The position numbers were made by a program, and so were the translations under genes. Of a DNA stretch of 64,000 nt, positions 4,090 through 60,761 are shown in pieces. Every line of letters begins with the position of its first letter. Positions within the stretch are counted from its first letter, which is position 1. Origin of the DNA: a virus (lineage: Duplodnaviria > Caudoviricetes); IMG/VR virus record IMGVR_UViG_3300028788_000011, positions 3,449-67,448 of that record; one strand, written 5' to 3'. The notes beneath the pieces were generated by a model. That model saw nothing but the letters and a program-made list of their open reading frames with translations, had not been told where the DNA came from and ran no database searches.

Positions 4090-4105
4090 ATTCTGATATC
4101 ACGCC
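4090..4105 (-). promoter_or_regulatory. Late-promoter-like motif GGCGTGAT-AT-CAGAAT, 6 nt before ATG 4083
   Basis: Matches the motif found at seven other intergenic sites; overlaps the MTase stop codon. Confidence 0.6.
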
Positions 4106-5910
4106 ATGATGATGTCAGCAAATAATGTTGATTCGGAGAGAATGCGCTTGCGCGCCATCTCGGCGTAGGCCGGATTAAGTTCGATTCCTATGCAATGGCG
4201 CTGCAGCCGATCGGCAACCAGCCCGGTGGTGCCGGCGCCGAAAAATGGATCGAGTACGGTACACGGTACCACATGCGCGCCAACACATTTACATGCTTGC
4301 GACCAACCAATCGTTTCGACATTGGTATTTCCACGCGGGAAACCATCTCTGTGGTTTGATGCATCCAAAGGCTTTTGATCGCCAGCGCCACGCACGCCTT
4401 TTTCTTCGCTGACATCACTCTGTGGGACAAATGTCGATTCAGTATCTCGTCGCCATGGAGTTCCACAAACAGAGCATGCGCCATGCTGGCTTGATCCGGC
4501 TTTGATGCACGTCTCCGGTAATTCCGGCGGGAAGGTGGCAAAATGCGCATCCTTGAACGAGTGGGTTGCCATCGTCCAGACGCTGCGCTTGTTGCGTTTT
4601 TCTGACGGCACATATTCCTTATATTCTGCTTCGTTGCGGCCTTCGCGGTGAATCGTTCCGTGGGCTCCAGCATCAGTATCCCATCCTCCTGGAACCTTGA
4701 TTTTTATGGAGCGCTGCTTTTCAGCATAGGCCAGTAATCCTGCCTTTGTCCGGTGACTGTCATCACCATTTTCGTAAGCTACTTGGCCTTTCGGCGGGTT
4801 GACATTACCGGGGAGTCTTTGCCGATGTTGCGCAGCCGATTGCCCTGGTAAGACATGCTCAGATACAGGCCCAGTGCGATCAAACACTGCTGCTTGCCCA
4901 GACCATGTTTGCGCCGGTTCCTTAATCGCTTCGGCATCGTAGTAATACTTCGCACTTTTCGTCAGAAAGAAAATGTATTCGTGCGACTTGGTGCAGCGGT
5001 CAGTGACGCTTTCTGGCATGGGATTGGGTTTCGACCAAACGATGTCTTGACGAACCCACCAGCCGGCGTCCTGTAGCGCGATCGCCAGTCGGTGCGGCAT
5101 CATCACAAGGTCTTTCGGTTTCAGGGCCGCACTGGTAGAATGTCCGGATGCCAAGCCCAAAGCATCCTTGCCCACAGTGCCAGACACCGACGCGCGCTCG
5201 GCTATGCAAAAATTGCACGCCACCGTATGAGAGAACTCCGGATCGCAATCAGGCAATGAGCACCCGCACGAAAGGCATTCGTCGGCCCGGCGTTGTATCG
5301 GCAAGCACGAAGCCGGAGGTGGCAAAGAAAATCCTTGATTGGTGGACGCCGGAGCGGCGCGAAGCGGCACGTCTGCGAGCCCAGAAGAACTTGGCTGACC
5401 CAGAATGGCGGCTTCGGTGTGGGCAGCCTGGAGAGACGAATCCAATGTGGGAAAACGGTCGGTCACAGATACCGTATGCCCGCGGCTGGACTCGGACTGC
5501 AAAGGCTCTGGCATGGCAGCGAGCCGAGAACCGGTGTGAAATTTGCCAATGCGAGACGCCTTGCGACACCCATCACAAAGATTTCCGCAAAGACAACCAT
5601 GATCTATCGAATCTGCAGGTACTTTGCCGGAGGTGCCACAAGAGGCTGCACGTTGAGCACCTGACCAGTAAGAATCACCCATGTTGATAAAGCAAGTGCC
5701 GTCCGGCCGCAACACACGACGCACTTCCTCGAACACCGCCACCATCGTGGCGATGAATTCCGCCGGCGTTGCTTCAAGTCCGAGCTGGCCATCGACGCCA
5801 TAATCGCGCAATCCCCAATATGGCGGGCTGCTCACGACGCAATGCACTGAGTTATCGGGCAACTTGCGCAACTGCTCGCGGACATCGCCAACCATGATCG
5901 TAACGGTCAT
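4099..5910 (-). CDS. N4-cytosine/N6-adenine DNA methyltransferase (beta class) with a ~180-aa in-frame insertion
   Basis: SPPY catalytic motif near the N-terminus, NMGDSY, KPKDL, WSKPNPMPES, HFATFP, DPFFGAGTT SAM-binding motif near the C-terminus. Confidence 0.92.
   Translation of the reverse strand: MTVTIMVGDVREQLRKLPDNSVHCVVSSPPYWGLRDYGVDGQLGLEATPAEFIATMVAVFEEVRRVLRPDGTCFINMGDSYWSGAQRAASCGTSGKVPADSIDHGCLCGNLCDGCRKASRIGKFHTGSRLAAMPEPLQSESSRGHTVSVTDRFPTLDSSLQAAHTEAAILGQPSSSGLADVPLRAAPASTNQGFSLPPPASCLPIQRRADECLSCGCSLPDCDPEFSHTVACNFCIAERASVSGTVGKDALGLASGHSTSAALKPKDLVMMPHRLAIALQDAGWWVRQDIVWSKPNPMPESVTDRCTKSHEYIFFLTKSAKYYYDAEAIKEPAQTWSGQAAVFDRTGPVSEHVLPGQSAAQHRQRLPGNVNPPKGQVAYENGDDSHRTKAGLLAYAEKQRSIKIKVPGGWDTDAGAHGTIHREGRNEAEYKEYVPSEKRNKRSVWTMATHSFKDAHFATFPPELPETCIKAGSSQHGACSVCGTPWRRDTESTFVPQSDVSEEKGVRGAGDQKPLDASNHRDGFPRGNTNVETIGWSQACKCVGAHVVPCTVLDPFFGAGTTGLVADRLQRHCIGIELNPAYAEMARKRILSESTLFADIIMA
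5148..5687 (+). CDS. HNH endonuclease nested antisense inside the MTase gene
   Basis: CPQC...CKNC N-terminal zinc knuckle, NUMOD3-like GETNPMWENGRS, and CEIC...DTHHKDFRKDNHDLSNLQVLCRRCHKRLH HNH core. Confidence 0.88.
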   Translation: MPSPKHPCPQCQTPTRARLCKNCTPPYERTPDRNQAMSTRTKGIRRPGVVSASTKPEVAKKILDWWTPERREAARLRAQKNLADPEWRLRCGQPGETNPMWENGRSQIPYARGWTRTAKALAWQRAENRCEICQCETPCDTHHKDFRKDNHDLSNLQVLCRRCHKRLHVEHLTSKNHPC

Positions 5911-6089
5911 CCCCGCACCAACCGTTCCCGCACCTCGACAACGCTCTCATAATTCCCCATGGCGAGCGGCGGGAAAGGCCGCTGCGAGATGGTGACCACG
6001 AGCCCGAGCTTGTTCGCGGCTATCACCAGGTCGCGCGCGCAGGATTCGACCTCGCGCTGGATTTGGTTGTCGGCTACGGCAGTATTCAC
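5907..6089 (-). CDS. Hypothetical protein
   Basis: Coupled overlaps with both neighbours. Confidence 0.6.
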   Translation of the reverse strand: MNTAVADNQIQREVESCARDLVIAANKLGLVVTISQRPFPPLAMGNYESVVEVRERLVRG

Positions 6090-7021
6090 TTTTTACCCCT
6101 GGCAACATCAAACACGCTGAGATAGTCCAGCATCTCAACGACCTGTTCGCGCGACAGCGTTGCGACGGTGCGATCGCCATCGGCGATGTGGAGTTCGCCG
6201 CTACTCCAGATCGCAAACGATGCCGCAGCGATGCGCAGCGGACCGGATGCAGCCGCCTGCTTGTCGCCATGAAGTAGCGACTCAACATGTGCAATATCCT
6301 CAGCTGTCGGCGCCGTGATAATGTACGTGGCATCGCCGAGACTCCACTCGACCTGCATGCGAGTGTCAGTGAGTTCGCGCGCAGTCGTCGTCGGTGCGGG
6401 CAAGTCCTCGGTCGGCCAGTCCAAACCCGTGAATTCCTTGTAGTCTTTTTTGTAATCGTCGTCGGTTGCGGGCACGTGCGGTGCAGGCTCCGGCGCTGCG
6501 TCAACCGCGCGCGTGCTGATAGCGGGATTGAACACCAACGGCTTCAGCGGTGCCGGCGCTGATCCAGCGCCAAGCGACCACTGGCGGCTGTTCTTGTTGA
6601 TCCTGCCGCCTTTGATCGCGCCGGCCAGCCATGTCGACGGGAACTGCCCTGGCTTGAGGCCAAGGACATGCGCGAGTTCGTCGCTGGTGGCGCTGCCGCC
6701 GTTGGCGGTAATGAACGCAATCGCCTTTTGCTCTGCAGTCTGCGGCTGGCCACCGGCGGCGACTTCAGCGCTTGCCAGCGCTTTCTCGAATATCGTCGGC
6801 AGTTCGGCCCCAGGCGCTCGGTAGACAGTGATGGTCTTGCCATCCTGCCGCGTGATTGCACTGCAAATCTGCTTGAGGTCGACGAGATCGACCAGCATCG
6901 TATAGGCGACATCGAGTTCGATGTCGAAATGGTCCGCCATATGATCGCATGTGGCGCCAGGATTGACAGTTACGAACGTCGTTATCTCGGCGCCGAGATC
7001 ACGCGGGAGTGGTGCTTTCAC
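6086..7021 (-). CDS. Protein with two winged-HTH-like domains
   Basis: NPGATCDHMADHF and NGGSATSDELAHVLG segments resemble wHTH recognition helices. Confidence 0.6.
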   Translation of the reverse strand: MKAPLPRDLGAEITTFVTVNPGATCDHMADHFDIELDVAYTMLVDLVDLKQICSAITRQDGKTITVYRAPGAELPTIFEKALASAEVAAGGQPQTAEQKAIAFITANGGSATSDELAHVLGLKPGQFPSTWLAGAIKGGRINKNSRQWSLGAGSAPAPLKPLVFNPAISTRAVDAAPEPAPHVPATDDDYKKDYKEFTGLDWPTEDLPAPTTTARELTDTRMQVEWSLGDATYIITAPTAEDIAHVESLLHGDKQAAASGPLRIAAASFAIWSSGELHIADGDRTVATLSREQVVEMLDYLSVFDVARGKK

Positions 7022-7331: not shown

Positions 7332-7640
7332 TCACTTCCGCACAAGGAATTCCGGTTCAACCTGGACCGCAACGATCTCGGCCGGTTGCTCGGGGCATTT
7401 TTTATCGTTGACCACGCAACGGATACCTGCGTCTTTGTGGTTGCGGAGTTTGATGCCACAAGCACATAGTGCATGCACTGTATCGTGCTCGCTGCGCGTC
7501 TCAGTGCCGCAGTTGGTGCAGCGATGGACATGGATTTGCTCGACTGTGTAGCGGTGGATGATGCGGCCCAAACACACGCGGCAAACATGCTGTGTGAGAT
7601 CCCAGCCGAACTGGTCCGGTGAATACTGCTTCTTCGCCAT
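7332..7640 (-). CDS. Cys-rich zinc-finger protein
   Basis: CRVC, CTNC and CACG motifs. Confidence 0.65.
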   Translation of the reverse strand: MAKKQYSPDQFGWDLTQHVCRVCLGRIIHRYTVEQIHVHRCTNCGTETRSEHDTVHALCACGIKLRNHKDAGIRCVVNDKKCPEQPAEIVAVQVEPEFLVRK

Positions 7641-8357: not shown

Positions 8358-8783
8358 GTCACGGTAACAGCGTAACAGCGATTGTTACCCGTTGTTACGA
8401 AATTGTTACGAGCCTAAGTCTTTGATTTCGTTACGTTTTTCACCTCCTTTATATATACAGTTACAAAGTTACATAGATTTATATATATAGATACATATGA
8501 GGTTATGGATATTGTGTATATGACAATTATATATATGTCGTGTGATACGCATATATGTATAGGTCTCCCCGGCGATTGTTACCGTTACTTGTTACCCCTT
8601 TAAAATCAATGACTTACGTCGATGTTACCGTAACAGGGTAACAATTTTTGTAACCGATCGATTTTGATGGGCGCGGCGTAACAATTGGGTAACAGACAAT
8701 TGTTACGTTTTTTACGTTTAAAATCAATTACTTACGTGCTTGGTAACGGTTTTTCTGTGGTAACACTGCGGGGATAGAGTTAC
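8358..8783. repeat. Probable replication origin: about 21 GTAAC/GTTAC pentamers, AT-rich core and three AAATCAANNACTTA boxes
   Basis: Counted by eye; near-perfect direct repeats TTTAAAATCAAT(G/T)ACTTACGT at about 8599 and 8717 plus an inverted copy at about 8416; (TA)n tract at about 8450-8560; non-coding. Confidence 0.7.
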
Positions 8784-9719: not shown

Positions 9720-10136
9720 ATGGTAGAACGATGCGCAGTCACCGAGGCATTAAACCGGTACCTTGCAGAGCAGGAAAAAGACGACGCCTATTCGGAGGCG
9801 ATATCGGATATCGTGACCGAGTTGACTGCGCCAAAGGGCGAATATTATCCTTTCACTTCCGAGCACATCTGCGAGGCCGTATCCGAGATGTCGAGCGCGC
9901 AGTGGCTCACGCTGGCAGGCGTTCTCCGCGACCACTTGCCTACATCATCTGGACTTCGCGATATCGTTGAAAAATACTGGACCGATGCTGCAGAGGCGGC
10001 AGCATCGGAGATTTTTAAGGCGCGCATCGAGCGCGCGCAAGAGGATGCCGCCGCCGATAAAGCCGACACCAGGGCATGGGAACGCGATCATGGCGACCTA
10101 ATTGAACAGAGTGTGAGACAGCAAAAATCAGCATGA
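9720..10136 (+). CDS. Acidic hypothetical protein
   Basis: AGGGG RBS; ATGA overlap with tnpB. Confidence 0.7.
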   Translation: MVERCAVTEALNRYLAEQEKDDAYSEAISDIVTELTAPKGEYYPFTSEHICEAVSEMSSAQWLTLAGVLRDHLPTSSGLRDIVEKYWTDAAEAAASEIFKARIERAQEDAAADKADTRAWERDHGDLIEQSVRQQKSA

Positions 10137-11185
10137 TTCAGGCACAAGTAAAACTCAGGTTAAGCGCCAATAAAGAAGCGCAGCTTAACGATTGGCTGTG
10201 GTCTTTGACTGCGGTTCATAATTTCGCCGTGCGCAAGATCGAACTTGATGCGAAGGATGGGATTTACTATACCGGCATGGTCTTTCAGAATATCCTTGCC
10301 GACCACGGGAAGAAGATCGACATACCGAGTCACACAGTACAGGGCATGTTGGCGCAGGTTCACACGGCATGGTCAAGATGCTTCAAAAAGATCGGCGGAA
10401 AGCCGAAGCTAAAAGGAATGCGCAACAAACTCAATTCAATCCCGTTCCCTGACCCCATAAAGTCGCAGGAAGGAAACCACATCAAACTGCCCGGTATCGG
10501 GTTGTTGCGCTTCCATAAGCAGGACATACCGAAAGGCAAGATCAAGTGCGGACGCATCATCAAGCGCGCTTCCGGCTGGTATCTGTGCCTGTTCATTGAT
10601 GCGGAGCGCAAACCTATCCAGCGCACGGCGGACGGCATGATCGGGATAGACCCCGGCTTTAAAGATTTAATCACCACTTCTGACGGCGAGAAGGTACCGC
10701 ACCCGAAGGAGTTGCAAGCCTCGCTAGATCGCCTAGGACAGGCACAGCGCGGCATCAATCGCAAGCAGGTAGCGAGATTGCATGAGCGCATCAAGAACCA
10801 GCGCAAAGACAGGAATCACAAGCTATCGCTGCGACTGGTGCAAGAGAATACCTTGATCGTTTTCTCGAAGGACAACATCAAGGGGATAGCAAAGAAGTTT
10901 GGGAAGAGCGTATCCAGCAGTGGGCATGCTCAACTTCGGTCAATGTTGAGTTACAAGAGCATTCAAAGCGGTACTCAATACATCGAAGTCGTTTCCCGTA
11001 ATTCCACTAGGACTTGTTCGTCATGCGGAGCTTTAACCGGGCCGCAAGGATGGGCAGGACTATCAGTAAGACATTGGGAATGTGGATGTGGAGTCCGCCA
11101 CGACAGAGACGTAAATGCTGCCGTAAACACCCTCTTGTCCGGCATGGGATGTGCCGCGAATCAGGAGTTACGCCATGTCGCATAA
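10133..11185 (+). CDS. tnpB: TnpB-family RNA-guided protein, RuvC glutamate apparently absent
   Basis: GIDPG (RuvC-I D), TCSSCG...ECGCG zinc finger, HDRDVNAAVN (RuvC-III D); RuvC-II reads IVFSKDN and the alternative-glutamate position reads VVSRNST. Confidence 0.92.
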   Translation: MIQAQVKLRLSANKEAQLNDWLWSLTAVHNFAVRKIELDAKDGIYYTGMVFQNILADHGKKIDIPSHTVQGMLAQVHTAWSRCFKKIGGKPKLKGMRNKLNSIPFPDPIKSQEGNHIKLPGIGLLRFHKQDIPKGKIKCGRIIKRASGWYLCLFIDAERKPIQRTADGMIGIDPGFKDLITTSDGEKVPHPKELQASLDRLGQAQRGINRKQVARLHERIKNQRKDRNHKLSLRLVQENTLIVFSKDNIKGIAKKFGKSVSSSGHAQLRSMLSYKSIQSGTQYIEVVSRNSTRTCSSCGALTGPQGWAGLSVRHWECGCGVRHDRDVNAAVNTLLSGMGCAANQELRHVA

Positions 11186-13355: not shown

Positions 13356-13356
13356 A

Positions 13357-41606: not shown

Positions 41607-41607
41607 A

Positions 41608-42753: not shown

Positions 42754-42762
42754 TATCGATCC

Positions 42763-44603: not shown

Positions 44604-44609
44604 GGCTTG

Positions 44610-44625: not shown

Positions 44626-44628
44626 CGC

Positions 44629-44904
44629 TCACACCGTGGAGCAATTCGGAGCGAAACCACTATTTAGAACCGCGCCGCAGCCAGCGACTGATCCGTTGAT
44701 GGCTAGGGCCAAGCCGCCGACAGTCGCTTTCGTGGCGCCGCCAGATACGATCACCGTCGTGCCATGCCCTGGTATTGGGCATACATGCAGGTCACCGACC
44801 CGACAGACCGCGCCGGCAGGCGTCGAGAATTTTGACCCTGTAGCCGTAGTCATTGATCCGCCATGACTTGACGTCGTACCGATGACAGCAATATTTGGCG
44901 TCAA
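44629..44904 (-). CDS. PAAR-like spike tip protein
   Basis: SSHGG, VGDLHVCPIPGHG, GSVAGCGA. Confidence 0.85.
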   Translation of the reverse strand: MTPNIAVIGTTSSHGGSMTTATGSKFSTPAGAVCRVGDLHVCPIPGHGTTVIVSGGATKATVGGLALAINGSVAGCGAVLNSGFAPNCSTV

Positions 44905-49950: not shown

Positions 49951-50240
49951 CGATATCTTCCCAATCGTCAGGCGGCGCCGCGCGATCGCGCTCAGCCGCT
50001 TCCTGCTCTATCCTTGCCAGCTCATCCTCGACACTGAACTGCTCGTCAAGGAATTCTTCTTGGACCTTGCCAGCCTGATACTGGTATGCCCACCACTCGG
50101 TCTCGATCTGTTCGTCCGTGGCGGCAAGATACCGGGGGTCAGTCGGCGCGAGATTGTACTGCTTCCGAAACCAGAGCCGGTAAGTTTGCGCCAGCTTCCG
50201 CCCCTCCACCCGCGCCGATGACCCGCGCTTTTGGTCGAAA
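49943..50240 (-). CDS. Tail assembly chaperone, downstream frame (likely frameshift product)
   Basis: WFRKQYNLAPTDPRYLAATDEQIETEWWA; no convincing own start; +1 frame relative to 50139-50549. Confidence 0.6.
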
Positions 50241-50549
50241 AGAGAGCTCCTTTTCTCGGAGTGCCCTCCATATTGCGACCAACTTGGAATCGACTTCATC
50301 ATCCACAAGTGGATCAAGTTGATCGATGTCGAAATTCTCAGGGCCGGAAACTAGTAGCGCTCTGACCGTCACATAGGATAGCGCGCCGAGGTCGCACATG
50401 TTGCCGTCGTCATCATAGTAGCCGCTGGTGATTTGGTGGTATTGTCCACGGATCTTGAACGTGTCTTCGATGGTGCGCCTGGCGAAATTGAAGCGACCGA
50501 GCCGATCTACTTCAACGAAAAAATCTGTTGCATGTGCTTGACGTGGCAT
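50139..50549 (-). CDS. Tail assembly chaperone
   Basis: Between tail tube and tape measure genes. Confidence 0.7.
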   Translation of the reverse strand: MPRQAHATDFFVEVDRLGRFNFARRTIEDTFKIRGQYHQITSGYYDDDGNMCDLGALSYVTVRALLVSGPENFDIDQLDPLVDDEVDSKLVAIWRALREKELSFRPKARVIGAGGGAEAGANLPALVSEAVQSRAD

Positions 50550-50581
50550 GATGGTGTATGTGATTGTGGGTGGGAGTTTTC

Positions 50582-50597
50582 ATTCTCCTATCACGAC
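50582..50597 (-). promoter_or_regulatory. Late-promoter-like motif GTCGTGAT-AG-GAGAAT
   Basis: Motif match directly after the tube-gene terminator. Confidence 0.55.
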
Positions 50598-50598
50598 G

Positions 50599-50629
50599 AA
50601 AGGGGCGGCACCAGACGATGCCGCCCCTT
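50599..50629 (-). terminator. Rho-independent terminator after the tail tube gene
   Basis: AAGGGGCGGCA/TGCCGCCCCTT hairpin followed by a short T run. Confidence 0.65.
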
Positions 50630-50652
50630 CATGCCACGGCCAAGAAGTATTC

Positions 50653-51084
50653 TCAACAGCCGGTTCCCTGCGTATCGAGCGCGTTGAACTGGCCGGCCTG
50701 CATGACGATTGCGTGCTTGCTGACTTCGATATCGCCGGAAGCGTACGAACACCCGACGTACTTGCGCAGCAATGCCCCAGTATTGTCGGAAACAACGATG
50801 TCGAATACGAGCCCAAGCAGCATGGCGTCGCCATTTTCTGCCGCCACGCCGGCCGAGATCATTTCACCGACGTTGAGCACCATCGCCTGGATGCTGATAT
50901 TGTGCCGCGCCATCGTTGGAACCCACTCTTGGACGTGGATGTCGCCGATACCTGATGCCGGTTCCGGTGAATAGTCGTCGTTCATGCGCACCGACTGCAA
51001 GAGCCCGATCTGAATGCCACCGAACATGACCGCGCATTTATTGCCAGTGCGCGTCTTGAGATTTACTTGTTGTTGGATTGCCAC
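50653..51084 (-). CDS. Tail tube protein
   Basis: 143 aa directly after the sheath; IGLLQSVRMNDDYSPEPASGIGD. Confidence 0.85.
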   Translation of the reverse strand: MAIQQQVNLKTRTGNKCAVMFGGIQIGLLQSVRMNDDYSPEPASGIGDIHVQEWVPTMARHNISIQAMVLNVGEMISAGVAAENGDAMLLGLVFDIVVSDNTGALLRKYVGCSYASGDIEVSKHAIVMQAGQFNALDTQGTGC

Positions 51085-51100
51085 GTTTCACTCCCTGGGG

Positions 51101-52831
51101 TTAAGATGCCGTCGCGGTACCGCTATACGGCACCGCGTAGACCGTCACAGCGACATAGTTTGCCGGCAATACCGGGCTGCATTGGAATTGAACGGATAGG
51201 ACATCGCCAGCGGCCGATGCCGTAATCCCGGTATAGGCAGGGCTAGCCGCATCGCCAGTGATAACTCCTGGTCCCTGTGGCTCTTGAACGGCAAGGGCCC
51301 GCAATTGTGATTCCGTGATATCGACTGCACGACGCAACAACTGCGGCGTCATTTTCTGACCGCGCAGTGGGTCCAATGCGTTGCGGACGTTCTGACATAC
51401 GAAATCCAGCGCCCAGCCGACGGACTGTTCGACCTTATCGTATTTCGAATCGACCAACCACGTCGAGATCGACTGCACGACATAGTATCCTTTTGACGTC
51501 GACTCGATGCAGAAGACGCCGCCTTGGATAAGGGGGTCGGTCTCGGTTGGGTTGGTCAACCGTCGCTCGACGCCGCTAAACGTCAGCGCCTTATTGGTCA
51601 ATGGCGTTCCTGGCGAGACGCCGGAGAAGGCCGCAGCGGCCACGGCGGCAGCCATGTACGGGGAATACAGTTGCAGACCCGTTACTTGGTTCGTCCAGTC
51701 GTAATCGTAGTACCCGATGTGTACAATCGATGTTCGGTTGCTGTTCAGGCTAAGCGCTTCGGTGAGCGCTTGGGCATCGGTCGTGCCAAGCGCCATTCCG
51801 CAGATCGCACGCCGTTCTTTCCGCCCGACAGTCGACATGTACTGCACATGCGCGTCGGCCATCGCGATGATGGACCCGGTCGCCGACAACGGCGCAATCC
51901 AGTTCACATCCTGCGTCTGCAAGGTCGTGAAGGCGTTGCTCCACTGGGTATTGGTGACGGTGCCATCTGTGCCACCAGTGAGGTAGGTCGTTGCCAATGG
52001 CGCTGGCGGCAACAGCGCGTTAGATGGCCGCGCCGCAACCACGAGACCGCCAGATTGTGGGCTGTTCAGGTAATTGATGGCTGCCTGCAGCACTGCGGTG
52101 ACGGTGAATGCTGTCGTCTTGATGGATTGTGCGGTGACGCCATCCAAGCCGTTCAGCGACGGCATACTCCCGGAAACGCCCAACACAGCCGCCGCGAATC
52201 CTGGGAAAGTGTTGATGTTGTCGACCAACTGCTGGACGGTAGGAAATGAGGCCAAACTGATGGCAGCGATCGGTGTCCCCGCCGGCGCAGAGAGGGTCAT
52301 CGTGGTATCGGTAACAGTCACCGTAGCAGTCGCCTGCGCGCCGGTATAGACGACGGTCATCGGCGCCGCATAGATATTGTCCTGCGCGTATACATCACTA
52401 CCGAGAGCGGTAGTGATGTATACGCCATTGGTAGAGCCAGCGGCCACATCGACATTGATTTGGTTCGTGTACTGGCCGTAATCGGACGCAAGCAGGGTAA
52501 TGGCAGGATTCGCCGAAGAATCCAGCAACGTCAAGCCAGCCTGCACAGCCGGGTTGACGCGAATCGCGACGACGGTAGTCGGGCCGCCAACTTCATTGCT
52601 GGGATTGAACGCTTTTGTGACAGCCTGCGCGAGTTCGCCAGTGCGCAGGGTTGCCAGCGCGGTCGCGGGGTCGCCGAATACCAGCGGGGTGTTGGGCGTG
52701 CCGCCGGTACTTTGCCCGATGACAGCGAGAACATTCCCGACGCTGAGATTTTGATTGAGCATTGCATCGTCATTGACCGCCGACACGGTAGTTGGCGTGA
52801 TGTACAAATGCCCGTTGAAGAAATATGGCAT
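51101..52831 (-). CDS. Contractile tail sheath protein
   Basis: VLAVIGQSTGGTPNTP, GEPL-like GTPLTNK, TETDPLIQGGV. Confidence 0.9.
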   Translation of the reverse strand: MPYFFNGHLYITPTTVSAVNDDAMLNQNLSVGNVLAVIGQSTGGTPNTPLVFGDPATALATLRTGELAQAVTKAFNPSNEVGGPTTVVAIRVNPAVQAGLTLLDSSANPAITLLASDYGQYTNQINVDVAAGSTNGVYITTALGSDVYAQDNIYAAPMTVVYTGAQATATVTVTDTTMTLSAPAGTPIAAISLASFPTVQQLVDNINTFPGFAAAVLGVSGSMPSLNGLDGVTAQSIKTTAFTVTAVLQAAINYLNSPQSGGLVVAARPSNALLPPAPLATTYLTGGTDGTVTNTQWSNAFTTLQTQDVNWIAPLSATGSIIAMADAHVQYMSTVGRKERRAICGMALGTTDAQALTEALSLNSNRTSIVHIGYYDYDWTNQVTGLQLYSPYMAAAVAAAAFSGVSPGTPLTNKALTFSGVERRLTNPTETDPLIQGGVFCIESTSKGYYVVQSISTWLVDSKYDKVEQSVGWALDFVCQNVRNALDPLRGQKMTPQLLRRAVDITESQLRALAVQEPQGPGVITGDAASPAYTGITASAAGDVLSVQFQCSPVLPANYVAVTVYAVPYSGTATAS

Positions 52832-52840
52832 GATCGTCCT

Positions 52841-53143
52841 TTATACCGGTTGGTTCATGAATGCTTCATACCGAGCATCGTAGGCAGACCGCGTGGCCTT
52901 ATGGTTGCCAGCGCGCTTTTCAGACTTTGCGAAGGCATTGAGCGCTTCGACGGCGCGACCGCATGTCTTCGACCGCGCAATCGCATAACGCTCAAGCGTG
53001 ATCTCGTTTTCCGGTGCCGGTTCGGTAACCGACGACACGGCAGCAGGCACCGACACCGCTGCAGCCGCAGGGGCCACGGCTGCAGCCGCAGGGGCTGCAG
53101 CAGGAACCACAGGCTTGATCGGTTGTTGGATATCTTCAGGCAT
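52841..53143 (-). CDS. Small Ala/Pro-rich protein preceding the sheath
   Basis: AGGAAG RBS; ITLERY...YEAFMNQPV. Confidence 0.65.
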   Translation of the reverse strand: MPEDIQQPIKPVVPAAAPAAAAVAPAAAAVSVPAAVSSVTEPAPENEITLERYAIARSKTCGRAVEALNAFAKSEKRAGNHKATRSAYDARYEAFMNQPV

Positions 53144-53153
53144 TTTTTTCTTC

Positions 53154-53996
53154 CTATAGGAAAACAGGGGTTGCGTTAACGATAGGATCCGCAACATAGA
53201 CAGGCTGCGTATCGGCCACGCCGGATGGGGCTTCGCATGTGAATGTGCAAACGGACTCATACACGGCAGCCGGATATTCTGGTGGCAGCGCATCGACATC
53301 TTGTTGGCTGAACTCAGGCAGGATGATCCCGTAATTGTCGAATACTTCCAGGTTGCCGATGACTATCTTGCGCAGAGCACGCCGCAGCGCGATCCGCTCA
53401 TCCGGGTTCTTGCTCCAGCCGATGATAGTCAGCGACACATGCGCCATCCATCCAGACGACTCTTTCCAGACGTTGTTGACCGCATCGAATTCGTCAGTGA
53501 ACGGCATTTCGCCGATAGCGCGGTCGCCGCTGCCATCGACAGCGACATGCACCGTCACCACTGGAAAATTCGTTTCATCGAATATCGGCGGCGCATTCAG
53601 AACCTGTATCTGCCCGCTGGCCGGCGACAACGTGCCGATGATGATCTCGTTTTCAAGGCCATATTGGAGCCGGTCGCGCACGATTGTGAGGACATCAACC
53701 GACTGGTCGGTGTAGGTGTAATTCGGCGTCCCTGACACTATGGCAGTGGCATTCCAAGCCGTCCCATCCCAGTAAAATTCGCAATAATAGTACAGGGTCC
53801 CGTTGACGAGGCCGCAGGTATCCATCAGATACGTTTCGTCGTCCCCTTCATAAATCGAGACGGAATTGACGTCGTTGTATGATGGGAAAATACCAGTGGT
53901 ATTACGCAAAATCACCCAAGCAAGCGCAGTCGGCTCTTGCTCAAGATAAATCTTGAGCGCGTTCCCGACGGCAGAAGGCAGTATTTGCGTGATCAT
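53154..53996 (-). CDS. Tail completion / terminator-like protein
   Basis: FN3-like N-terminus; FPVVTVH...IIGWSKNPDERIALR. Confidence 0.65.
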   Translation of the reverse strand: MITQILPSAVGNALKIYLEQEPTALAWVILRNTTGIFPSYNDVNSVSIYEGDDETYLMDTCGLVNGTLYYYCEFYWDGTAWNATAIVSGTPNYTYTDQSVDVLTIVRDRLQYGLENEIIIGTLSPASGQIQVLNAPPIFDETNFPVVTVHVAVDGSGDRAIGEMPFTDEFDAVNNVWKESSGWMAHVSLTIIGWSKNPDERIALRRALRKIVIGNLEVFDNYGIILPEFSQQDVDALPPEYPAAVYESVCTFTCEAPSGVADTQPVYVADPIVNATPVFL

Positions 53997-54003
53997 GCAG
54001 ATT

Positions 54004-54035
54004 ATTGTGCAGTCACGACGACGGGATGCAATAAT
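54004..54035. promoter_or_regulatory. Back-to-back pair of late-promoter-like motifs
   Basis: Minus GTCGTGAC-TG-CACAAT (54019-54004), 7 nt before ATG 53996; plus GACGGGAT-GC-AATAAT (54020-54035), 6 nt before ATG 54042. Confidence 0.7.
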
Positions 54036-54041
54036 TAGGGC

Positions 54042-54782
54042 ATGGCCGACTACACCATCACCATCGATCTACCAAACGCTGACGATATTCGCAGGGTCGT
54101 GAATGGCGCCGTCTTCCCGCGCGTCAAGCAGGCCATACGCAACATCGCTGAAATCACCAGGGAAGATTGGATAAACGCAATCAAAAAGGCACGGCTATGG
54201 AGCGGTGAAAAAACCCCCTACATGGCGTCCATCACGGTAGCGTATCCTACCGACCTGTCGGCCGTGATCAGTTCCAACTACAAATACGCGGAAGAGATCG
54301 AGACCGGGCGGCCGCCGCGCGACCTCAAGCGCATGCTCCAGACATCGAAGAAAATACGGTTCGCCAAGACCGGCCCCCATGCCGGACAGCGGTATCTGAT
54401 CATCCCCCTCAGGCACAATGTCAGCGGCATGTCGGCAGATACCTATCAAGCCGCGTCGAGCATGGCGCCGTCTGTGGTGACTGGCAAGGCGTTGCAGAAC
54501 AATGGCGGTACCGGCGCTCGCGTGCGCATGCGCCAGCGCGCTACCTACAACTGGGGCGACCGCATGAACGCGCCAGGCACAAATCAGCACGGAATGGTCC
54601 GGTTCGACACCTCGAGCAAGAAGTCGAAGTCCAGTACATATCTCACATTTCGCGTTATGGGAGAATGGTCTGCAGGCTGGATCATCCCGGCGCAACCAGG
54701 CCAGTACATCGCCAAGAAGGTCGCCGAGGCCATGCAACCGGCGGCAGATGAGGTAATCAAATTGGCGTTCGCCGAACCCTAA
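54042..54782 (+). CDS. Neck/tail-completion-like protein (HK97 gp10-like), inverted relative to the operon
   Basis: YKYAEEIETGRPPRDLK...RYLIIP...YLTFRVM...GWIIPAQPG; fills the gap between minus-strand genes. Confidence 0.65.
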   Translation: MADYTITIDLPNADDIRRVVNGAVFPRVKQAIRNIAEITREDWINAIKKARLWSGEKTPYMASITVAYPTDLSAVISSNYKYAEEIETGRPPRDLKRMLQTSKKIRFAKTGPHAGQRYLIIPLRHNVSGMSADTYQAASSMAPSVVTGKALQNNGGTGARVRMRQRATYNWGDRMNAPGTNQHGMVRFDTSSKKSKSSTYLTFRVMGEWSAGWIIPAQPGQYIAKKVAEAMQPAADEVIKLAFAEP

Positions 54783-55414
54783 CGCCGGAACAAATCAAAG
54801 TCGCGGAGCACAACGCGCTTAGGCAACGGCGCGCCGCTGTGCTCGTTACGGTTCGACGGAAAGTCGCCGAAGCAAAAATAGTCCAAGAACTTCGACCCAG
54901 AGACGGTGTACTTGGTATTCGCCGGCGGCGCGCCGCCAGCCCATGTCAGCGTGCCATCGGAATTGACGACAGGGATACCGCCCTCAACTACTGCAGTGCC
55001 ATCGGTCGTCAACCAAAATACGCGATCAATCGAGTTGACCGTCATCACCAGCGCTTCCACCTGCGCGCCATGCGTCAAGACAACGCTGAATTGATTGGTT
55101 GCGTTCAATGCCGTCACGCGGTCATACTGCCCCATTGTGTACATCGGCGAGTCCGATCCGATCGAGACCACGACGTCGCCGCTCTCATAGAGACCGAACT
55201 GTGCCCATGCCCGCTGCGTGGACATGCCAGTCATGCCGGCGACTCCATTCACGCCGGCAAGCCATTGACGACCCTTCCCGAAACAAATAGGGCATGATGG
55301 TTTCGGTGCGCCACTGTGCGGGTCCGTGCATGGGCAGGCGTAGGATTTGCGCCAGGTGTACTGCTGCCCGATTCCGGCCAGGAAGGAATTAAATTTTGAT
55401 GGGCTTAGCTGCAT
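54779..55414 (-). CDS. Head closure protein with zinc finger
   Basis: Start reassigned to ATG 55414 (TGATG coupling); CPCTDP...SCPICFGKG. Confidence 0.7.
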   Translation of the reverse strand: MQLSPSKFNSFLAGIGQQYTWRKSYACPCTDPHSGAPKPSCPICFGKGRQWLAGVNGVAGMTGMSTQRAWAQFGLYESGDVVVSIGSDSPMYTMGQYDRVTALNATNQFSVVLTHGAQVEALVMTVNSIDRVFWLTTDGTAVVEGGIPVVNSDGTLTWAGGAPPANTKYTVSGSKFLDYFCFGDFPSNRNEHSGAPLPKRVVLRDFDLFRR

Positions 55415-56517
55415 CACATCACAATCCCACGAACACCATGGATAGCAGTCTTGAGACCGCCATTCTGCCCCTTGGGGCCGTCGATGAGGACATCGATCAT
55501 GTCGCGATACTTTTCCATGTCGACCGACAGCGACTGGCTGAGCCCGTCGGCGCTGATGCTGTCGCTGGACGGGAAGAACATGTCGCCGATGACGCGCACG
55601 ACCGCCATTTTCTTGATGAGGTCGATTATATCTGGCCACTTCTGCCAGACATCGGTAAGGCCGGCAACATAGGTTATATTGAGGATATGCGGTATCACAC
55701 GCCCGGCGCCGATGAGTTGAATCATGAAGCCGCCCAGCATCGCCATCGAGATGTTCGAAGTCGGTACGATGCGGAGTTGCCCGTATTTCAAATCCCATTT
55801 GAACCAATCCAGCGGCAACACGTAGTTGAAATCATTCTCACTCGGGTAATTGTACATGACCGAGGTCAAGCTGATTAGCGGGCGCTGCCTGAGTTGGATG
55901 AAACTCCAGTTGTCTCCCTGAAACATGGCGGGGTCGTAGTCATAGGCGGGGTCGATATCCCACGGCATACCGTTCAGAGCCGTTATCTGATCGCTTGTGG
56001 GCGGCGTCGGGAAAAATGCCGTCGGCACGAACCTGACCCGCAGGCGGCGACTGGCATCTGATTCAGCCGCGAGTACCCTCTCCCAGATGTAGTCATCGGT
56101 TACGGTGAGGTTCGGCATGATCGTCAACGCCAACAGATAAAGTTGGTCAGAACGGATATCCGAGACGATGAAATCTTTCACGAACAGATCCGAGCGCGTC
56201 GGCGCAGAGTTCGCCACCTCGATATCAAGGCGGAAACGATATGGCTTCCCGTCCACGACGATGACCAACATCGCCACCGGCGGCGCGGTCGTATTGGTCT
56301 GAAGCGCGGTCAATGCGACCGCAACCAGACCCGCAGCCCAATTTGAGCCGGCATCGCCAGACAAGCACGTAATCGCTGGCGTGAATAACGCAGCGCCGGT
56401 GACGACATCGAATAATTGCGCCGTGACGGTCGCCCCGGATGCGATCGGCGTCGGGACGCCATTGGTCAACAACGTAACCGGTACCGTCACTGCTTGATCG
56501 ACAATAATCGTAGTCAT
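55414..56517 (-). CDS. Head-tail adaptor / neck protein
   Basis: TDDYIWERVLAAE, QLRQRP, YVAG, SISADGLSQS. Confidence 0.7.
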   Translation of the reverse strand: MTTIIVDQAVTVPVTLLTNGVPTPIASGATVTAQLFDVVTGAALFTPAITCLSGDAGSNWAAGLVAVALTALQTNTTAPPVAMLVIVVDGKPYRFRLDIEVANSAPTRSDLFVKDFIVSDIRSDQLYLLALTIMPNLTVTDDYIWERVLAAESDASRRLRVRFVPTAFFPTPPTSDQITALNGMPWDIDPAYDYDPAMFQGDNWSFIQLRQRPLISLTSVMYNYPSENDFNYVLPLDWFKWDLKYGQLRIVPTSNISMAMLGGFMIQLIGAGRVIPHILNITYVAGLTDVWQKWPDIIDLIKKMAVVRVIGDMFFPSSDSISADGLSQSLSVDMEKYRDMIDVLIDGPKGQNGGLKTAIHGVRGIVM

Positions 56518-56530
56518 GTGAACCCATTAA

Positions 56531-56565
56531 AAATCCGCTGAGCGGTATTCCCGGACAGCGGATTT
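56531..56565 (-). terminator. Rho-independent terminator
   Basis: AAATCCGCTG/CAGCGGATTT arms followed by a T run on the minus strand. Confidence 0.65.
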
Positions 56566-56586
56566 GTCAGCCGGGGTAGTCCTGGC

Positions 56587-57180
56587 TTAATAGATTGGGC
56601 GGTTTTCCTGCGTTAGCAATGGCACCAACTGACTGTTACCGAGAGCATCAAAATACAGCGTGGTCACGCTGGCAGCATCGAGATTGGTCGTGCCGGCAGT
56701 GAAGTTGCCGCCAGTCGCATTCGATACCACGATGAAGCCGATCAATGCCGAGTAGACTGGTTGCTGAGCACCTACTGGGGCCGGCGCGGTGGCTGCCGCC
56801 AACGAGACCAAATTGGCAATTGCACCGGCAACGGTGGATGCTGGCGTGGCCATTGCCGATGCGCTTAGCGTTCCCGACTGGTTCACATAAAACGCCCAGG
56901 CCGCGCTGTCGGCAGTCGGCAACGTGCCGGCAATGGCTGGCATGCTTGTTGCCGCAGCCACATAAACGATAGCGCCGTTGACCTGAGCCACAAAACCTGA
57001 TGCAGCTGCTGCAAGCGGCGACGCGCCCCCGCTTTTAATCGCCAACCCGGCCTTGGTAATCATGCCCGTATTTTCGAGATTGATCAGATCGCCGATGCAA
57101 TCGCCTACCTTGGCAACGGACATCGCCGGAGACGAATTGTTGACTTGTTCCTGGTTGGAACCCTGCGGGGCTTTGCTCAT
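56587..57180 (-). CDS. Probable head decoration / structural protein
   Basis: Ala-rich ORF two genes downstream of the capsid gene. Confidence 0.6.
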   Translation of the reverse strand: MSKAPQGSNQEQVNNSSPAMSVAKVGDCIGDLINLENTGMITKAGLAIKSGGASPLAAAASGFVAQVNGAIVYVAAATSMPAIAGTLPTADSAAWAFYVNQSGTLSASAMATPASTVAGAIANLVSLAAATAPAPVGAQQPVYSALIGFIVVSNATGGNFTAGTTNLDAASVTTLYFDALGNSQLVPLLTQENRPIY

Positions 57181-57213
57181 TTCATTCTCTCTAAAAAAAT
57201 GGCCGGCGGCCGG

Positions 57214-57543
57214 TTATTCCTTGGCGCTGCCCGCACTCTGCAGAGTCAGCGTGTTTTGCTTTTCAGCGAATTCGTTTGCGTCAACTACCTTCTTGATCTC
57301 AGCGGTGAGGCGTTGCACTTTCCAGCGCGAGTCAACCTTAATGCCAAGCGCAATCGCCTGTTCTGTCAGCGCCAGGATCTCGCTGTCCTGGCTGTCAGCC
57401 AATTCAAAACCGGCGATAGACGTAAAATGCATTGCCTTTTCGTCCGATATTTCCGCCGAGATGAGATGCTCACCGTGGCGTTCAAATACGATGCCGTCTA
57501 TTAACTCGGACGCATATTCCAACTTACAAATTACTCGTGGCAT
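57214..57543 (-). CDS. Small head-region protein with HeH/Rho-N-like tail
   Basis: AIALGIKVDSRWKVQRLTAEI. Confidence 0.65.
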   Translation of the reverse strand: MPRVICKLEYASELIDGIVFERHGEHLISAEISDEKAMHFTSIAGFELADSQDSEILALTEQAIALGIKVDSRWKVQRLTAEIKKVVDANEFAEKQNTLTLQSAGSAKE

Positions 57544-57605
57544 GATCTATTACTCCGACGATTGATAATCCCCCGGCCGGAGCCAGGGGCCGCAGACAGC
57601 CGCGA

Positions 57606-59120
57606 TTACTCGTTCGTGAATGGCCGCCACGTTGCCTTAGAAGGCAAGATGTTTTTGATGTAGCCGTGGTGTTTCGGCTTGGTCATACGCAGATAACCAA
57701 ACAGGAACTGAAACCACGAGATAACGGGTACGCCGCCAACACCGAAAGGCAAAGGAATCTTTGTCATCGGTTGGAATTGGCGCCAGCCGATCGCATCGGC
57801 GGCTTGGCCCATGTTCAACAGCGGAACCTGGAAAGTGCCGGGGATATCGGCATTCCGGTCGGTATAGGTAGTGGTAGCGCCGCCGACTGGAATGACCTTG
57901 AACAGCCGCAGTGTCGACGATGTGTTCGGGCCGTTCTGGTACGAACGATACAAGGCGTATCCGCTTTCGGTTCCTGCGGTCGAACGCGTAATCGTCAACA
58001 CGGCATTGTAGCCGGCGGCGACGGAAGTTTGCGCGCTCTTTACGCAGGCGCTGTAACCCTTGCCAGTGGCATCGATTGCAGCGACAGCCCAATAGTATAA
58101 GCCGGCACGCGAGGCGTTGAACGAACTCGACGGATCCGAATTGGTTGCAATGGTCAGGCTGGCCGGCAGGATACCGGCATTGGCAGTTGCCGCCGCAGTG
58201 TAATTCGTGTCGGTTGCGCCGTCCCAGGGCACGGTCATCGGATTCAATGTATCGTGCAGGAACGTGTCCATATGGGTTTTCAATGCGCCGTGAGTCAGGC
58301 GAATTGCTTCCACATGGCCGCCAAGCATCGGCGTATTCGATCCGGCAGGCATCCAGCGATATGCTGGGTCGAGATCGGTGTTCAAATCGGTCTGCACAGA
58401 CATCGGCAAGAAGGCATCGGTCGACTTACCCCAGCTACCATACCCCTGCACATTCGCGTTGATGGTCGAGAACGGCAGTACGCTATTCAGCTTTGCGCCC
58501 TGCAAGTCATAGACGTTGCCGCTGGACATATTGCCGGCTGCGATCTGCGCATCGATCTGCGTGAAGATACCGTCGAATTGAACCGGCGATGCCGAGGCGT
58601 TGCCGTGGAAAAGCATGTATTCGGCATCGGTCAGCAATTGCAGCGCGCCGTTGCGTTCTTCGACCGCAGTCGCCTCGATGATGTTCTTGCCGATGTTCAG
58701 GACGTACCCGACTTGACGCAGGGACATCAGGAACTTGACCAAGCCGACTTCACGAGCGTAAGCGCCTTGGGCCGATGCGACAACGCCCATTTGAGAATTC
58801 GCCGAACCCGCCAACACGCCACCGACACCGGTCTGACGAACGTATTCGTCGACGATATTCGTCGCGTTGGTCGACTGCAGCATGTTGAACAGCGTGAAGT
58901 TCTCATTCTCCTGGATCACGGTTTTCATGGCCGTATCGAGAGATTGAACGCCAAGCGAGCCGCCGCCGGTCAGGGTCGCGACGTCGGTTTGGTAGTTGCT
59001 GGCTTGGAGGGCTTTTTGCAAGTCCTCGAAGTTGGAAAGGGCCCCGCCTTGCGAGCCGCCCAGAACAGGGTTAGCACCGCCTGGTACCACCCCCGCATAT
59101 TGATTGAAAATTCCTGCCAT
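57606..59120 (-). CDS. Major capsid protein (SPO1/Twort-like lineage)
   Basis: LQKALQASNYQTDVATLTGGGSLGVQSLD, VDEY, EAVEERNG, FDGI; GAGGA RBS. Confidence 0.85.
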   Translation of the reverse strand: MAGIFNQYAGVVPGGANPVLGGSQGGALSNFEDLQKALQASNYQTDVATLTGGGSLGVQSLDTAMKTVIQENENFTLFNMLQSTNATNIVDEYVRQTGVGGVLAGSANSQMGVVASAQGAYAREVGLVKFLMSLRQVGYVLNIGKNIIEATAVEERNGALQLLTDAEYMLFHGNASASPVQFDGIFTQIDAQIAAGNMSSGNVYDLQGAKLNSVLPFSTINANVQGYGSWGKSTDAFLPMSVQTDLNTDLDPAYRWMPAGSNTPMLGGHVEAIRLTHGALKTHMDTFLHDTLNPMTVPWDGATDTNYTAAATANAGILPASLTIATNSDPSSSFNASRAGLYYWAVAAIDATGKGYSACVKSAQTSVAAGYNAVLTITRSTAGTESGYALYRSYQNGPNTSSTLRLFKVIPVGGATTTYTDRNADIPGTFQVPLLNMGQAADAIGWRQFQPMTKIPLPFGVGGVPVISWFQFLFGYLRMTKPKHHGYIKNILPSKATWRPFTNE

Positions 59121-59158
59121 TTTGATTCCTCTTTAAGTTGACGGGTTGGTGGGGTGGG

Positions 59159-59836
59159 TTATGCCAGAACCTTTGCGACCAGAGACTGATCGATTTCGCG
59201 CGCTTGGTTGTTGCGCAGTGCGACATCGATAAATGTCAGGTCTTTGCCGGTGATCTTGCCAGCGTCGAAGGCAGCAGTGGCTTTCACCATGAAGGTCGAG
59301 CCATCGATTTGTCCAGCATTTTCGGACTTCGCTAAAGTCGCCGACGCATTGTCGTGAATGTTCAGCAGCGTCTTGCGGCCATTACCCTGGTTGCCGATTT
59401 TTTGCACATCGCCCTGCAGCGACTTGATGATTTCGGCTTGCCGCGTGATGACCTCGCCTTGTTTCTTGACGATGCCAATGGTCGCGGACAGCGCTTTCGC
59501 GATCACGTCTTCCGTGTCGTCGATGCGCCCGATCAGCGCCTTGACCAGCGCAGTACCGTCTTCAGCCTGGACTTCCTGGCCGTTGATAGTGACAGTCAGC
59601 GACTTCACGAGCGGGTTACCATCCTCGTCGAGTTCTTCGCCTTCGCCTTCTTTTTTCTTGCCTTCGACTTTTTCGCCACCGGTGTTGCCACCGTCTTTCT
59701 TGCCACCCGCTTCACCAGTGCCACCGGCTGCGGCAGCAATGACTTTATCGCCCCCGTCTGCCGGCAGTGCCTTGGCTATGATGTCAAGTTCGCCCAACAG
59801 CGCCTCGAAGGCACCAACTTGTTTTCCATCGCTCAT
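59159..59836 (-). CDS. Capsid scaffold-like protein
   Basis: Between protease and capsid; acidic and coiled-coil with LVKS/IAKA motifs. Confidence 0.65.
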   Translation of the reverse strand: MSDGKQVGAFEALLGELDIIAKALPADGGDKVIAAAAGGTGEAGGKKDGGNTGGEKVEGKKKEGEGEELDEDGNPLVKSLTVTINGQEVQAEDGTALVKALIGRIDDTEDVIAKALSATIGIVKKQGEVITRQAEIIKSLQGDVQKIGNQGNGRKTLLNIHDNASATLAKSENAGQIDGSTFMVKATAAFDAGKITGKDLTFIDVALRNNQAREIDQSLVAKVLA

Positions 59837-60738
59837 GTCGCACTCCGTTTTTTGTTTAAACCAGTTTTCAAATCGCGGTAAAACCGCTCCACATACTCAG
59901 CCGCGTCGCTGAGCGCGAGGCCAAATCTTTTGTTGCAATATTCGATAAGTGCCTTCGGGTTCGGTTTCGCGGCACCGCTCTTGATGGCGCCGGCGATGAT
60001 GTCGCGGAACTCGAAATAATTTTTCGGTGCGCCATCGAGAGACTGCATGCCGAGCGCGCCGCCGCCAGAGAGATTCGCCATGTCGGTGCTGTAGCTGGCT
60101 TCGAGAGCCTTGACAAAATCCAGACCGGCCACGCCCCAACTTTTGGCAAGCACACCGAACGGGACCGTCGCAACGGTCGGGACGGCTTGATTGACGGGTG
60201 TTTTACTAAACCCAATATTACTCCAGCGCACTTTTTTTACGTACGCTTTGCGGCTTTTTGTGTCTGGGTCGATCTCGACTGCGGTTTCCATAACATGTCC
60301 GCCGACGGATGGGTACCAGCGCGCTGGCGGGCTAATATCGACCAAGCTTGACCAGAATTCGTTGGCTTTTTCGCTGGCAGGACCACTACCAGTAGCGATG
60401 AGACCCTTCACGAAGGTAGCACCGCCGGAAAATTTGACATCTACTGGTCGCCCGATTTCGAAGAGTTCACAACCAGGTATTCCTGGTGTGCCAAGTTTCG
60501 GATTGGGTTTTCCGATCAGTGTATAGTGGTCGATATCGAGATTCCCATACTGCAGGAACCAATCGGCGCTATCGCGCAACGCTTTTTGAAGAACTACTTC
60601 ATTTTGCTGGTCCTCGACCTCGTTGGATGCTTCGATATAGATGAATCGATTGTTTCCCTCCATGCGCGGAGTCGCCTTGAGCATCGAGCCGATGCACAGA
60701 TATTCGGGGCAATTCGCCAATAGTTGGGTGTCGTCCAT
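59833..60738 (-). CDS. Prohead protease-like protein
   Basis: IYIEASNEVEDQQNE, GNLDIDH, FVKG, PSVGG, IGFSKTPVN; ATG 60738 follows a late-promoter motif. Confidence 0.75.
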   Translation of the reverse strand: MDDTQLLANCPEYLCIGSMLKATPRMEGNNRFIYIEASNEVEDQQNEVVLQKALRDSADWFLQYGNLDIDHYTLIGKPNPKLGTPGIPGCELFEIGRPVDVKFSGGATFVKGLIATGSGPASEKANEFWSSLVDISPPARWYPSVGGHVMETAVEIDPDTKSRKAYVKKVRWSNIGFSKTPVNQAVPTVATVPFGVLAKSWGVAGLDFVKALEASYSTDMANLSGGGALGMQSLDGAPKNYFEFRDIIAGAIKSGAAKPNPKALIEYCNKRFGLALSDAAEYVERFYRDLKTGLNKKRSAT

Positions 60739-60745
60739 GCCATCG

Positions 60746-60761
60746 AGTATCAAGTCACGAC
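60746..60761 (-). promoter_or_regulatory. Late-promoter-like motif GTCGTGAC-TT-GATACT, 7 nt before ATG 60738
   Basis: Motif match right after a terminator. Confidence 0.7.

Follow-up and report, generated by a model that had tools for sequence, protein, structure and literature searches.

A conserved GTCGTGAY motif as the probable late promoter signal, often with a leaderless layout, of a clade of proteobacterial myoviruses

Here we describe a short motif, GTCGTGAY followed after 2 bases by a -10-like hexamer, which recurs upstream of packaging, lysis and virion genes in a stretch of 64,000 nucleotides (nt) of viral DNA, hereafter the window. The window corresponds to bases 3449-67448 of one 67,448-base pair (bp) contig (IMG/VR record IMGVR_UViG_3300028788_000011), which derives from peat metagenomes and has a G+C content of ~55%. 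Profile scans show the gene content of a contractile-tailed phage, with the major capsid protein, prohead protease, sheath, tape measure, baseplate, tail fibres and endolysin encoded on the minus strand between ~33.6 and 61 kb, and the large terminase at the left edge of the window. The nearest cultured relative, judged by the capsid protein, is Bordetella phage vB_BbrM_PHB04 (69% identity; hereafter PHB04), with Aeromonas ST4, Pseudomonas Jeremy and Dolphis, Enterobacter phiT5282EW, E. coli ECML-606-1 and Yersinia fHe-Yen8-01 being further close relatives and Touem01, Mecenats66 and the Thermus Lalka phages more distant ones; a megablast search with 20 kb found no near relative in the phage collection. 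Genomes of the relatives measure 86-95 kb, the contig being ~25 kb shorter. Neither portal nor Dar-like cargo genes were found among the window proteins scanned. Because the contig terminates within a large helicase gene and no portal gene was found among those proteins, it is probably an incomplete genome, and more copies of the motif are therefore expected beyond those described below.

The original prediction listed 8 copies of the motif, all of which are present at the given coordinates and strands (Table 1); the plus-strand copy is degenerate, with 2 mismatches to GTCGTGAY. Exact matches to CGTGAYNNNANNAT number 6 in the window against 1.29 expected, a count reached in none of 100 shuffles. 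The looser pattern CGTGAY-N3-A-N3-T has 9 copies, 7 of which are located in intergenic DNA, which accounts for 6.6% of the window (binomial P 1.8e-7), and all 7 intergenic copies point to a same-strand gene start 7-33 nt downstream. In the late region, promoters of the sigma-70 consensus type show no excess (8 found versus 10.6 expected). Two copies overlap the TGA stop codon upstream, as already noticed. Two copies had also been described as directly following terminators: this is accurate for copy 8, which is preceded by a canonical intrinsic terminator, whereas the hairpin before copy 5, followed by UUUC, is only terminator-like. Besides the 8 copies, a possible degenerate one lies before the gene in the small terminase (TerS) position, the PHB04 orthologue of which (gp056) is preceded by a perfect copy. 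The previously reported weak copy in the divergent region before the replication operon is present as described but is not conserved in PHB04, and its status is uncertain.

Table 1. Motif copies, associated signals and candidate factor genes in the window. Distances in the last column are from the hexamer to the start codon unless stated otherwise; SD, Shine-Dalgarno sequence; ORF, open reading frame.
Feature	Position	Strand	Sequence	Start codon and context
Possible degenerate copy	1838-1853	-	TAGTGAT-AG-TACATT	38 nt to ATG of TerS-position gene 1149-1799
Copy 1	4090-4105	-	GGCGTGAT-AT-CAGAAT	ATG 4083 at 6 nt; heads small-ORF, TerS-like, TerL string
Copy 1 overlap	4099-4101	-	TGA	Stop codon of upstream methyltransferase gene
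Candidate factor P0002	7332-7640	-		102 residues, cysteine-rich, N-terminal zinc ribbon; adjoins P0001; clade core gene
Candidate factor P0001	7640-8161	-		173 residues; first gene behind 840-bp control region; clade core gene
Weak copy, status uncertain	23282-23297	-	CGCGTGAC-GT-TAAAGT	Divergent region before replication operon
Endolysin gene	33645-34160	-		Lysis cassette behind copy 2
Holin-like gene	34139-34603	-		Lysis cassette behind copy 2
Copy 2	34616-34631	-	TTCGTGAC-AT-TAAAAT	Before lysis cassette
Copy 3	40626-40641	-	GCCGTGAC-AC-CATAAT	ATG at 27 nt, no SD; before tail-fibre gene 39234-40598
Copy 3 overlap	40635-40637	-	TGA	Upstream stop codon
Copy 4	44610-44625	-	TTCGTGAC-CA-CATAAT	ATG 44603 at 6 nt; before virion/baseplate gene 43374-44603
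Copy 5	50582-50597	-	GTCGTGAT-AG-GAGAAT	ATG at 32 nt; before tail chaperone and tape-measure genes
Hairpin upstream of copy 5	50599-50630	-	Then UUUC only	14-bp stem, -28 kcal/mol, z -4.3; terminator-like, short U tract
Copy 6	54004-54019	-	GTCGTGAC-TG-CACAAT	ATG 53996 at 7 nt; before 53154-53996 and sheath operon
Copy 7, degenerate	54020-54035	+	GACGGGAT-GC-AATAAT	ATG 54042 at 6 nt; back to back with copy 6
Copy 8	60746-60761	-	GTCGTGAC-TT-GATACT	ATG 60738 at 7 nt; before protease, scaffold-position and major capsid genes
Intrinsic terminator	60783-60798	-	GCCGCC-TTCG-GGCGGC then T9	21 nt upstream of copy 8

At 5 of the copies (1, 4, 6, 7 and 8), an in-frame ATG stands 6-7 nt past the hexamer, with no in-frame start upstream. 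An SD-like 4-mer is absent at all 5 of these starts and present at 35 of the 77 window genes, the gene calls underlying these counts being rough. The start codons are fixed by comparison with the relatives, because protein homology begins at the Met lying 6-7 nt from the hexamer (4 gene families in 5 phages) and in-frame stops are found a few codons upstream of that Met in 14 of the 20 gene-phage cases. The proposal that 5 ATGs follow the hexamer at this distance without an SD thus holds for these 5 genes but not for ATG 34608 behind copy 2, which was rejected as a gene start since it is not in frame with the gene and its own reading frame runs for only 12 codons. Because the gene behind copy 2 starts at 34603 or 34588, this copy would give a leader of 5 or 20 nt and not a leaderless message. 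At the 5 hexamer-adjacent genes, the predicted transcription start (+1) is the A of the start codon, so that 5 of the 8 copies would yield mRNAs beginning with AUG if transcription starts where predicted.

The motif occupies the same gene positions in PHB04, ST4, Jeremy, Touem01 and ECML-606-1 as well as in ~110 uncultured or prophage loci. Orthologous genes sharing it across the cultured relatives are those for the portal, the protease, the divergent pair and the baseplate; the pair equivalent to copies 6 and 7 is found in all 5 of these phages. In PHB04, the form is tCGTGAC-N2-nAnnnT, usually followed by 6 bases and an ATG, and copies precede gp005, gp010, gp014, gp015, gp022 (protease), gp025, gp026, gp027, gp031, gp035 (portal), gp056 and gp064, among others; gp005, the orthologue of the gene behind copy 4, has the same arrangement of motif and ATG as in the window. 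The motif has drifted to (A/C)GTGAT in Mecenats66, whereas phages of 41-46% G+C retain aGGTCGTGACAnTAnnAT, with P0001 homologues (see below) that are 33-34% identical. Among prophage-like loci carrying the P0001 family, 39 of 48 have the motif, usually as TCGTGAY.

Extending the motif search to related phages, as the original prediction had suggested, we compiled non-redundant sites from a clade set of 66 IMG/VR loci, found via the P0001 family, together with the cultured relatives. This set holds 194 CGTGAY-N3-A-N3-T sites among 1549 occurrences of CGTGAY, compared with ~62 expected. The searches required A-N3-T, which fixes A and T at hexamer positions 2 and 6 by construction, and the independent support for these 2 bases is the excess of 194 over ~62. 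The 2 bases immediately upstream of CGTGAY are predominantly G (72%) and T (73%), whereas the hexamer follows the consensus nAnn(A/C)T, with no preference for T at the first base. An ATG lies 6 nt past the hexamer in 51 of the 194 sites and 7 nt past it in 15. Across 152 sites, no position between -40 and -11 relative to the hexamer carries more than 0.13 bit of information, hence there is neither a -35 box nor an UP element. At the 95 copies with no nearby ATG, the sixth base past the hexamer is C in 42% and the seventh is A in 46% and G in only 8%; this C-A would correspond to the common pyrimidine-purine start dinucleotide and lies at the distance usual for it, also at copies followed by a leader.

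These features bear on whether the motif is a promoter at all. It could instead act at the RNA level or as another DNA signal in long operons, for instance as a translation enhancer replacing the SD, a processing site or the operator of a regulator, and indeed the distance to the ATG is fixed in one third of the copies, 2 window copies overlap stop codons, and GUGAU is complementary to part of the 3' tail of 16S rRNA. However, 14-15 nt separate the end of the block from the ATG, a distance too great for pairing with 16S rRNA, for which reason GTGAT was also rejected as an extended SD, and roughly half to two thirds of the clade copies lie farther from any ATG, yet keep the C-A with its A at the seventh base. 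Furthermore, one copy comes directly after an intrinsic terminator and another after a terminator-like hairpin, the back-to-back divergent pairs fit promoters, and the A-N3-T spacing is a -10 signature. We consider a function other than that of a promoter very improbable.

In several relatives, a hairpin comes immediately after a copy of the motif and is itself followed by a T run and the ATG (PHB04 L002:40374-40386, ECML-606-1 7544-7556, Jeremy L004:30003-30015 and Mecenats66 64881-64893), in PHB04 and Mecenats66 before the holin gene. The hairpin could be a promoter-proximal terminator or a stabilising 5' stem-loop; there is no such case in the window.

Collectively, the placement of the motif, its conservation in phages of at least 5 host genera, the lack of information at the -35 position, the A-11 and T-7 of the hexamer and the C-A at the predicted start agree with the original suggestion of a promoter in which a conserved element abuts the -10 box and no -35 box is used. 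It is likely that the motif represents a phage-specific promoter class serving packaging, lysis and virion operons and read by a phage-encoded factor, and a promoter carrying this motif is very probably common to a whole clade of phages of Proteobacteria, in which it would often start the message at the start codon itself. The proposed anatomy, drawn from ~150-190 clade sites, comprises G(-22)TCGTGAY(-15), 2 variable bases, a minimal -10 box nAnn(A/C)T retaining A-11 and T-7, 5 further bases and C(-1)A(+1). The -10 box would probably be melted by the host RNA polymerase via sigma-70-type region 2. Positions -22 to -15 would probably be bound by a sequence-specific protein encoded by the phage, which takes the place of -35 recognition and sets the timing, presumably late. 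Transcription would then start 7 nt past the hexamer, a position that at 5 of the 8 window copies is the A of the start codon.

A-11 and T-7 are the 2 bases flipped out by sigma-70-type factors, and their retention, along with the C-A at the canonical start distance, also fits a scheme in which the host sigma-70 holoenzyme reads the signal alone, GTCGTGAY being an unusual spacer or extended -10 element and any phage protein acting on the polymerase without binding DNA, for example by blocking -35 recognition. Such polymerase-directed logic, with -35 recognition blocked, is reportedly used by Thermus phage P23-45, and sigma-70 is conserved across the 3 proteobacterial classes of hosts over which the motif is spread. 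The extended -10 TG is nevertheless absent from -15/-14 (-15 is the Y of GTGAY, and -14 and -13 are variable), T is not preferred at -12 and no -35 box is present; by established sigma-70 rules such promoters would be very weak, and the nearly invariant 8-bp block has the look of a binding site for a dedicated protein with sequence specificity. Recognition by sigma-70 alone is accordingly judged unlikely. We favor instead a reader borne by the phage, because the near-invariant block is kept across hosts of 3 proteobacterial classes; we also know of no host alternative sigma factor whose consensus matches GTCGTGAY.

The absence of a recognisable sigma factor gene, noted originally, is borne out by Pfam, PHROGs and NCBIfam scans of ~80 window proteins (not every small ORF), which revealed no sigma factor, RNA polymerase or other named transcription factor, and neither a sigma factor nor a polymerase is annotated in the complete relatives. 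These results speak against recognition of the signal by a polymerase of the phage's own or by a highly divergent phage sigma factor missed by profiles, for which P0001, as a minimal sigma, might be considered; in addition, the predicted structure of P0001 matches no sigma domain. That explanation would account for a single compact element near the start, as in the promoters of T4 gp55 or phiEco32 gp36, and has room in the many unannotated ORFs and in the ~25 kb by which the contig falls short of its relatives, but we regard it as rather improbable.

The window phage, PHB04, ECML-606-1 and Mecenats66 have 25 genes in common, namely 15 virion genes, 1 terminase gene, 7 genes that are part of the replication/recombination module or located inside it (encoding a primase, a nuclease-like protein, SSB, a helicase, an exonuclease, an ATPase and a neighbouring protein of unknown function), P0001 and P0002. 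In ECML-606-1, the P0001 homologue is encoded at 79153-79698 and that of P0002 at 78812-79153. The last 2 are the sole core genes with no virion or replication/recombination assignment or neighbourhood, and in all 4 phages they are adjacent and come first behind a large non-coding control region. Of the 3 candidate activators named in the original prediction, P0001 (7640-8161) is thus conserved across the clade, whereas 6086-7021 has no counterpart in PHB04 or ECML-606-1 and 30539-30793 has one in PHB04 only; the latter 2 were rejected on these grounds.

In P0001, 7 cysteines are invariant and one more is conserved in at least 90% of the sequences, making 2 zinc sites likely, and the structure of the protein is predicted confidently (predicted local distance difference test score 89.5) but has no significant match among solved structures (Foldseek best E 1.3; VIA-align Z at most 2.6). 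It belongs to no curated Pfam or NCBIfam family, with a single sub-threshold NCBIfam hit (E 0.003), and in the Atlas it falls within unnamed viral clusters only. In the phage collection, P0001 is found in exactly the 10 records of this clade. The family amounts to 932 clusters at 50% identity and extends to prophage-like loci of Burkholderiales, Alphaproteobacteria and Gammaproteobacteria, with homologues in assemblies of Caballeronia, Paraburkholderia, Cupriavidus, Bordetella, Microvirga, Methylobacterium, Methylococcaceae and others. Since the closest homologues (54-56% identity) occur in Caballeronia and Paraburkholderia, the host of the peat phage is probably a member of the Burkholderiaceae. 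Longer members of the family give sub-threshold winged-helix matches (MarR_2, HTH_11 and HTH_62; E 3e-4 to 1e-3), which we take as a hint only. For P0002, the search of solved structures likewise gave no significant match, and the weak, generic zinc-ribbon similarities (Elf1, Rpb9 and TFIIS; E at least 0.24) were not counted as evidence.

We tentatively propose the adjacent zinc proteins P0001 and/or P0002 as candidates for the reader, with restraint because the argument is one of elimination and co-inheritance. A broader and rather doubtful extension is that P0001/P0002 represent a new promoter-specificity family that retargets the host RNA polymerase to -35-less GTCGTGAY promoters, so that the late regulon of these phages and prophages of Alpha-, Beta- and Gammaproteobacteria would be largely leaderless, perhaps along with a phage-induced shift of host translation toward leaderless mRNAs.

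Several observations weigh against these proposals. Neither P0001 nor P0002 has a recognised DNA-binding or RNA-polymerase-binding fold, and both have been inherited together with the motif within one clade, for which reason their co-occurrence with it is not independent evidence; the contig being partial, the factor may also be encoded elsewhere. In ECML-606-1, most copies of the motif are followed by leaders with an SD, and the leaderless layout is hence not intrinsic to the putative promoter. Metatranscriptome contigs from 4 peat or permafrost RNA runs of 4 studies, compared with 41001-61000, include short, near-identical (95-100%) pieces of capsid, sheath and other late genes, which attest to the presence of capsid and sheath sequence in RNA libraries, with no information on ends, strand or timing.

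The 840-bp non-coding region upstream of P0001 has an AT-rich stretch (8440-8560) and is probably an iteron-containing origin or control region: 8 of the 11 TTGTTAC copies of the window (3.7 expected window-wide) cluster at 8380-8710, together with many GTTAC/GTAAC units. The TTGTTAC unit resembles the GTTAC variant of the late box of phage P1. Elsewhere in the window, the replicative superfamily 2 (SF2) helicase gene (20363-22903, minus strand) encodes, at residues 52-344, Hint and LAGLIDADG homing-endonuclease domains, which look like an intein, and a TnpB-type gene with OrfB_IS605 and Cas12f1-like TNB domains (10133-11185, plus strand) lies inside the early rightward operon.

A full-text literature search found no relevant paper on the motif, and a paper on the clade has no promoter analysis. 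For a widespread, barely studied clade of ~86-95-kb myoviruses and prophages, with hosts including Bordetella, Pseudomonas, Aeromonas, E. coli, Yersinia, Burkholderiales and Alphaproteobacteria, the signal would mark out the late transcription units. It would provide a simple rule for annotating operons and true start codons and would point to a so-far unknown mechanism by which host RNA polymerase is redirected. In Proteobacteria, regulons made up of leaderless mRNAs are rare, and with cultured members growing on E. coli and P. putida, both the promoter and leaderless translation are directly testable.

Among known systems, the T4 late promoters (gp55, gp33 and gp45) and those of phiEco32 gp36 likewise combine a compact -10-region element and no -35 box with host core polymerase and phage specificity proteins. 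In both, the element is the -10 box itself (TATAAATA and TAATGTATA, respectively), whereas the motif described here has a minimal -10 box preceded by a distinct 8-bp block. The T4-type TATAAATA does not occur at -10 in the window motif, and the Pfam and PHROGs scans gave no gp55-like or sigma-like match among the ~80 window proteins covered, which include part of the small ORFs. A second parallel is Thermus phage Lalka27a, a distant relative by its capsid protein (32% identity), for which dense late promoters with a -10-region consensus, no -35 box and mostly leaderless transcripts have been described, with no phage sigma factor or polymerase and an unknown phage factor proposed (bioRxiv 10.64898/2026.04.20.719267). 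Its consensus is TAGGGT plus a C at -25, compared with GTCGTGAY-N2-nAnnnT here, its host is a Thermus, in which leaderless mRNAs are common, and no P0001 homologue was found in the Lalka records.

The late promoters of P1 have the form AAGTGACTT-N4-TAnnAT in the annotated P1 record and depend on Lpa (gp10) and host SspA, Lpa being a sequence-specific DNA-binding activator that needs SspA (PMC1891329). They have in common with the window motif the lack of a -35 box, a conserved box adjoining the -10 hexamer and a GTGAC/GTTAC core, and they too occur in many copies before packaging, lysis and virion operons, with the activator gene located just upstream of the terminase operon. By contrast, the core is separated from the hexamer by 6 bp in P1 and by 2 bp here, the flanks also differ, the 9-bp P1 box AAGTGACTT does not stand 4 bp upstream of the hexamer at the window motif, and none of 6 P1 late promoters examined has an ATG right behind the hexamer, unlike 5 of the window copies. 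No Lpa homologue was detected in the window, PHB04, ECML-606-1 or the partial ST4 and Jeremy sequences (tblastn best E 2.1; phmmer best E 0.69), and SSB is the only gene shared with the ~71 of 95 kb of P1 that were compared. Because Lpa has no homologue and only SSB is shared, we place the window system outside that of P1, as one that would nonetheless work in the same manner.

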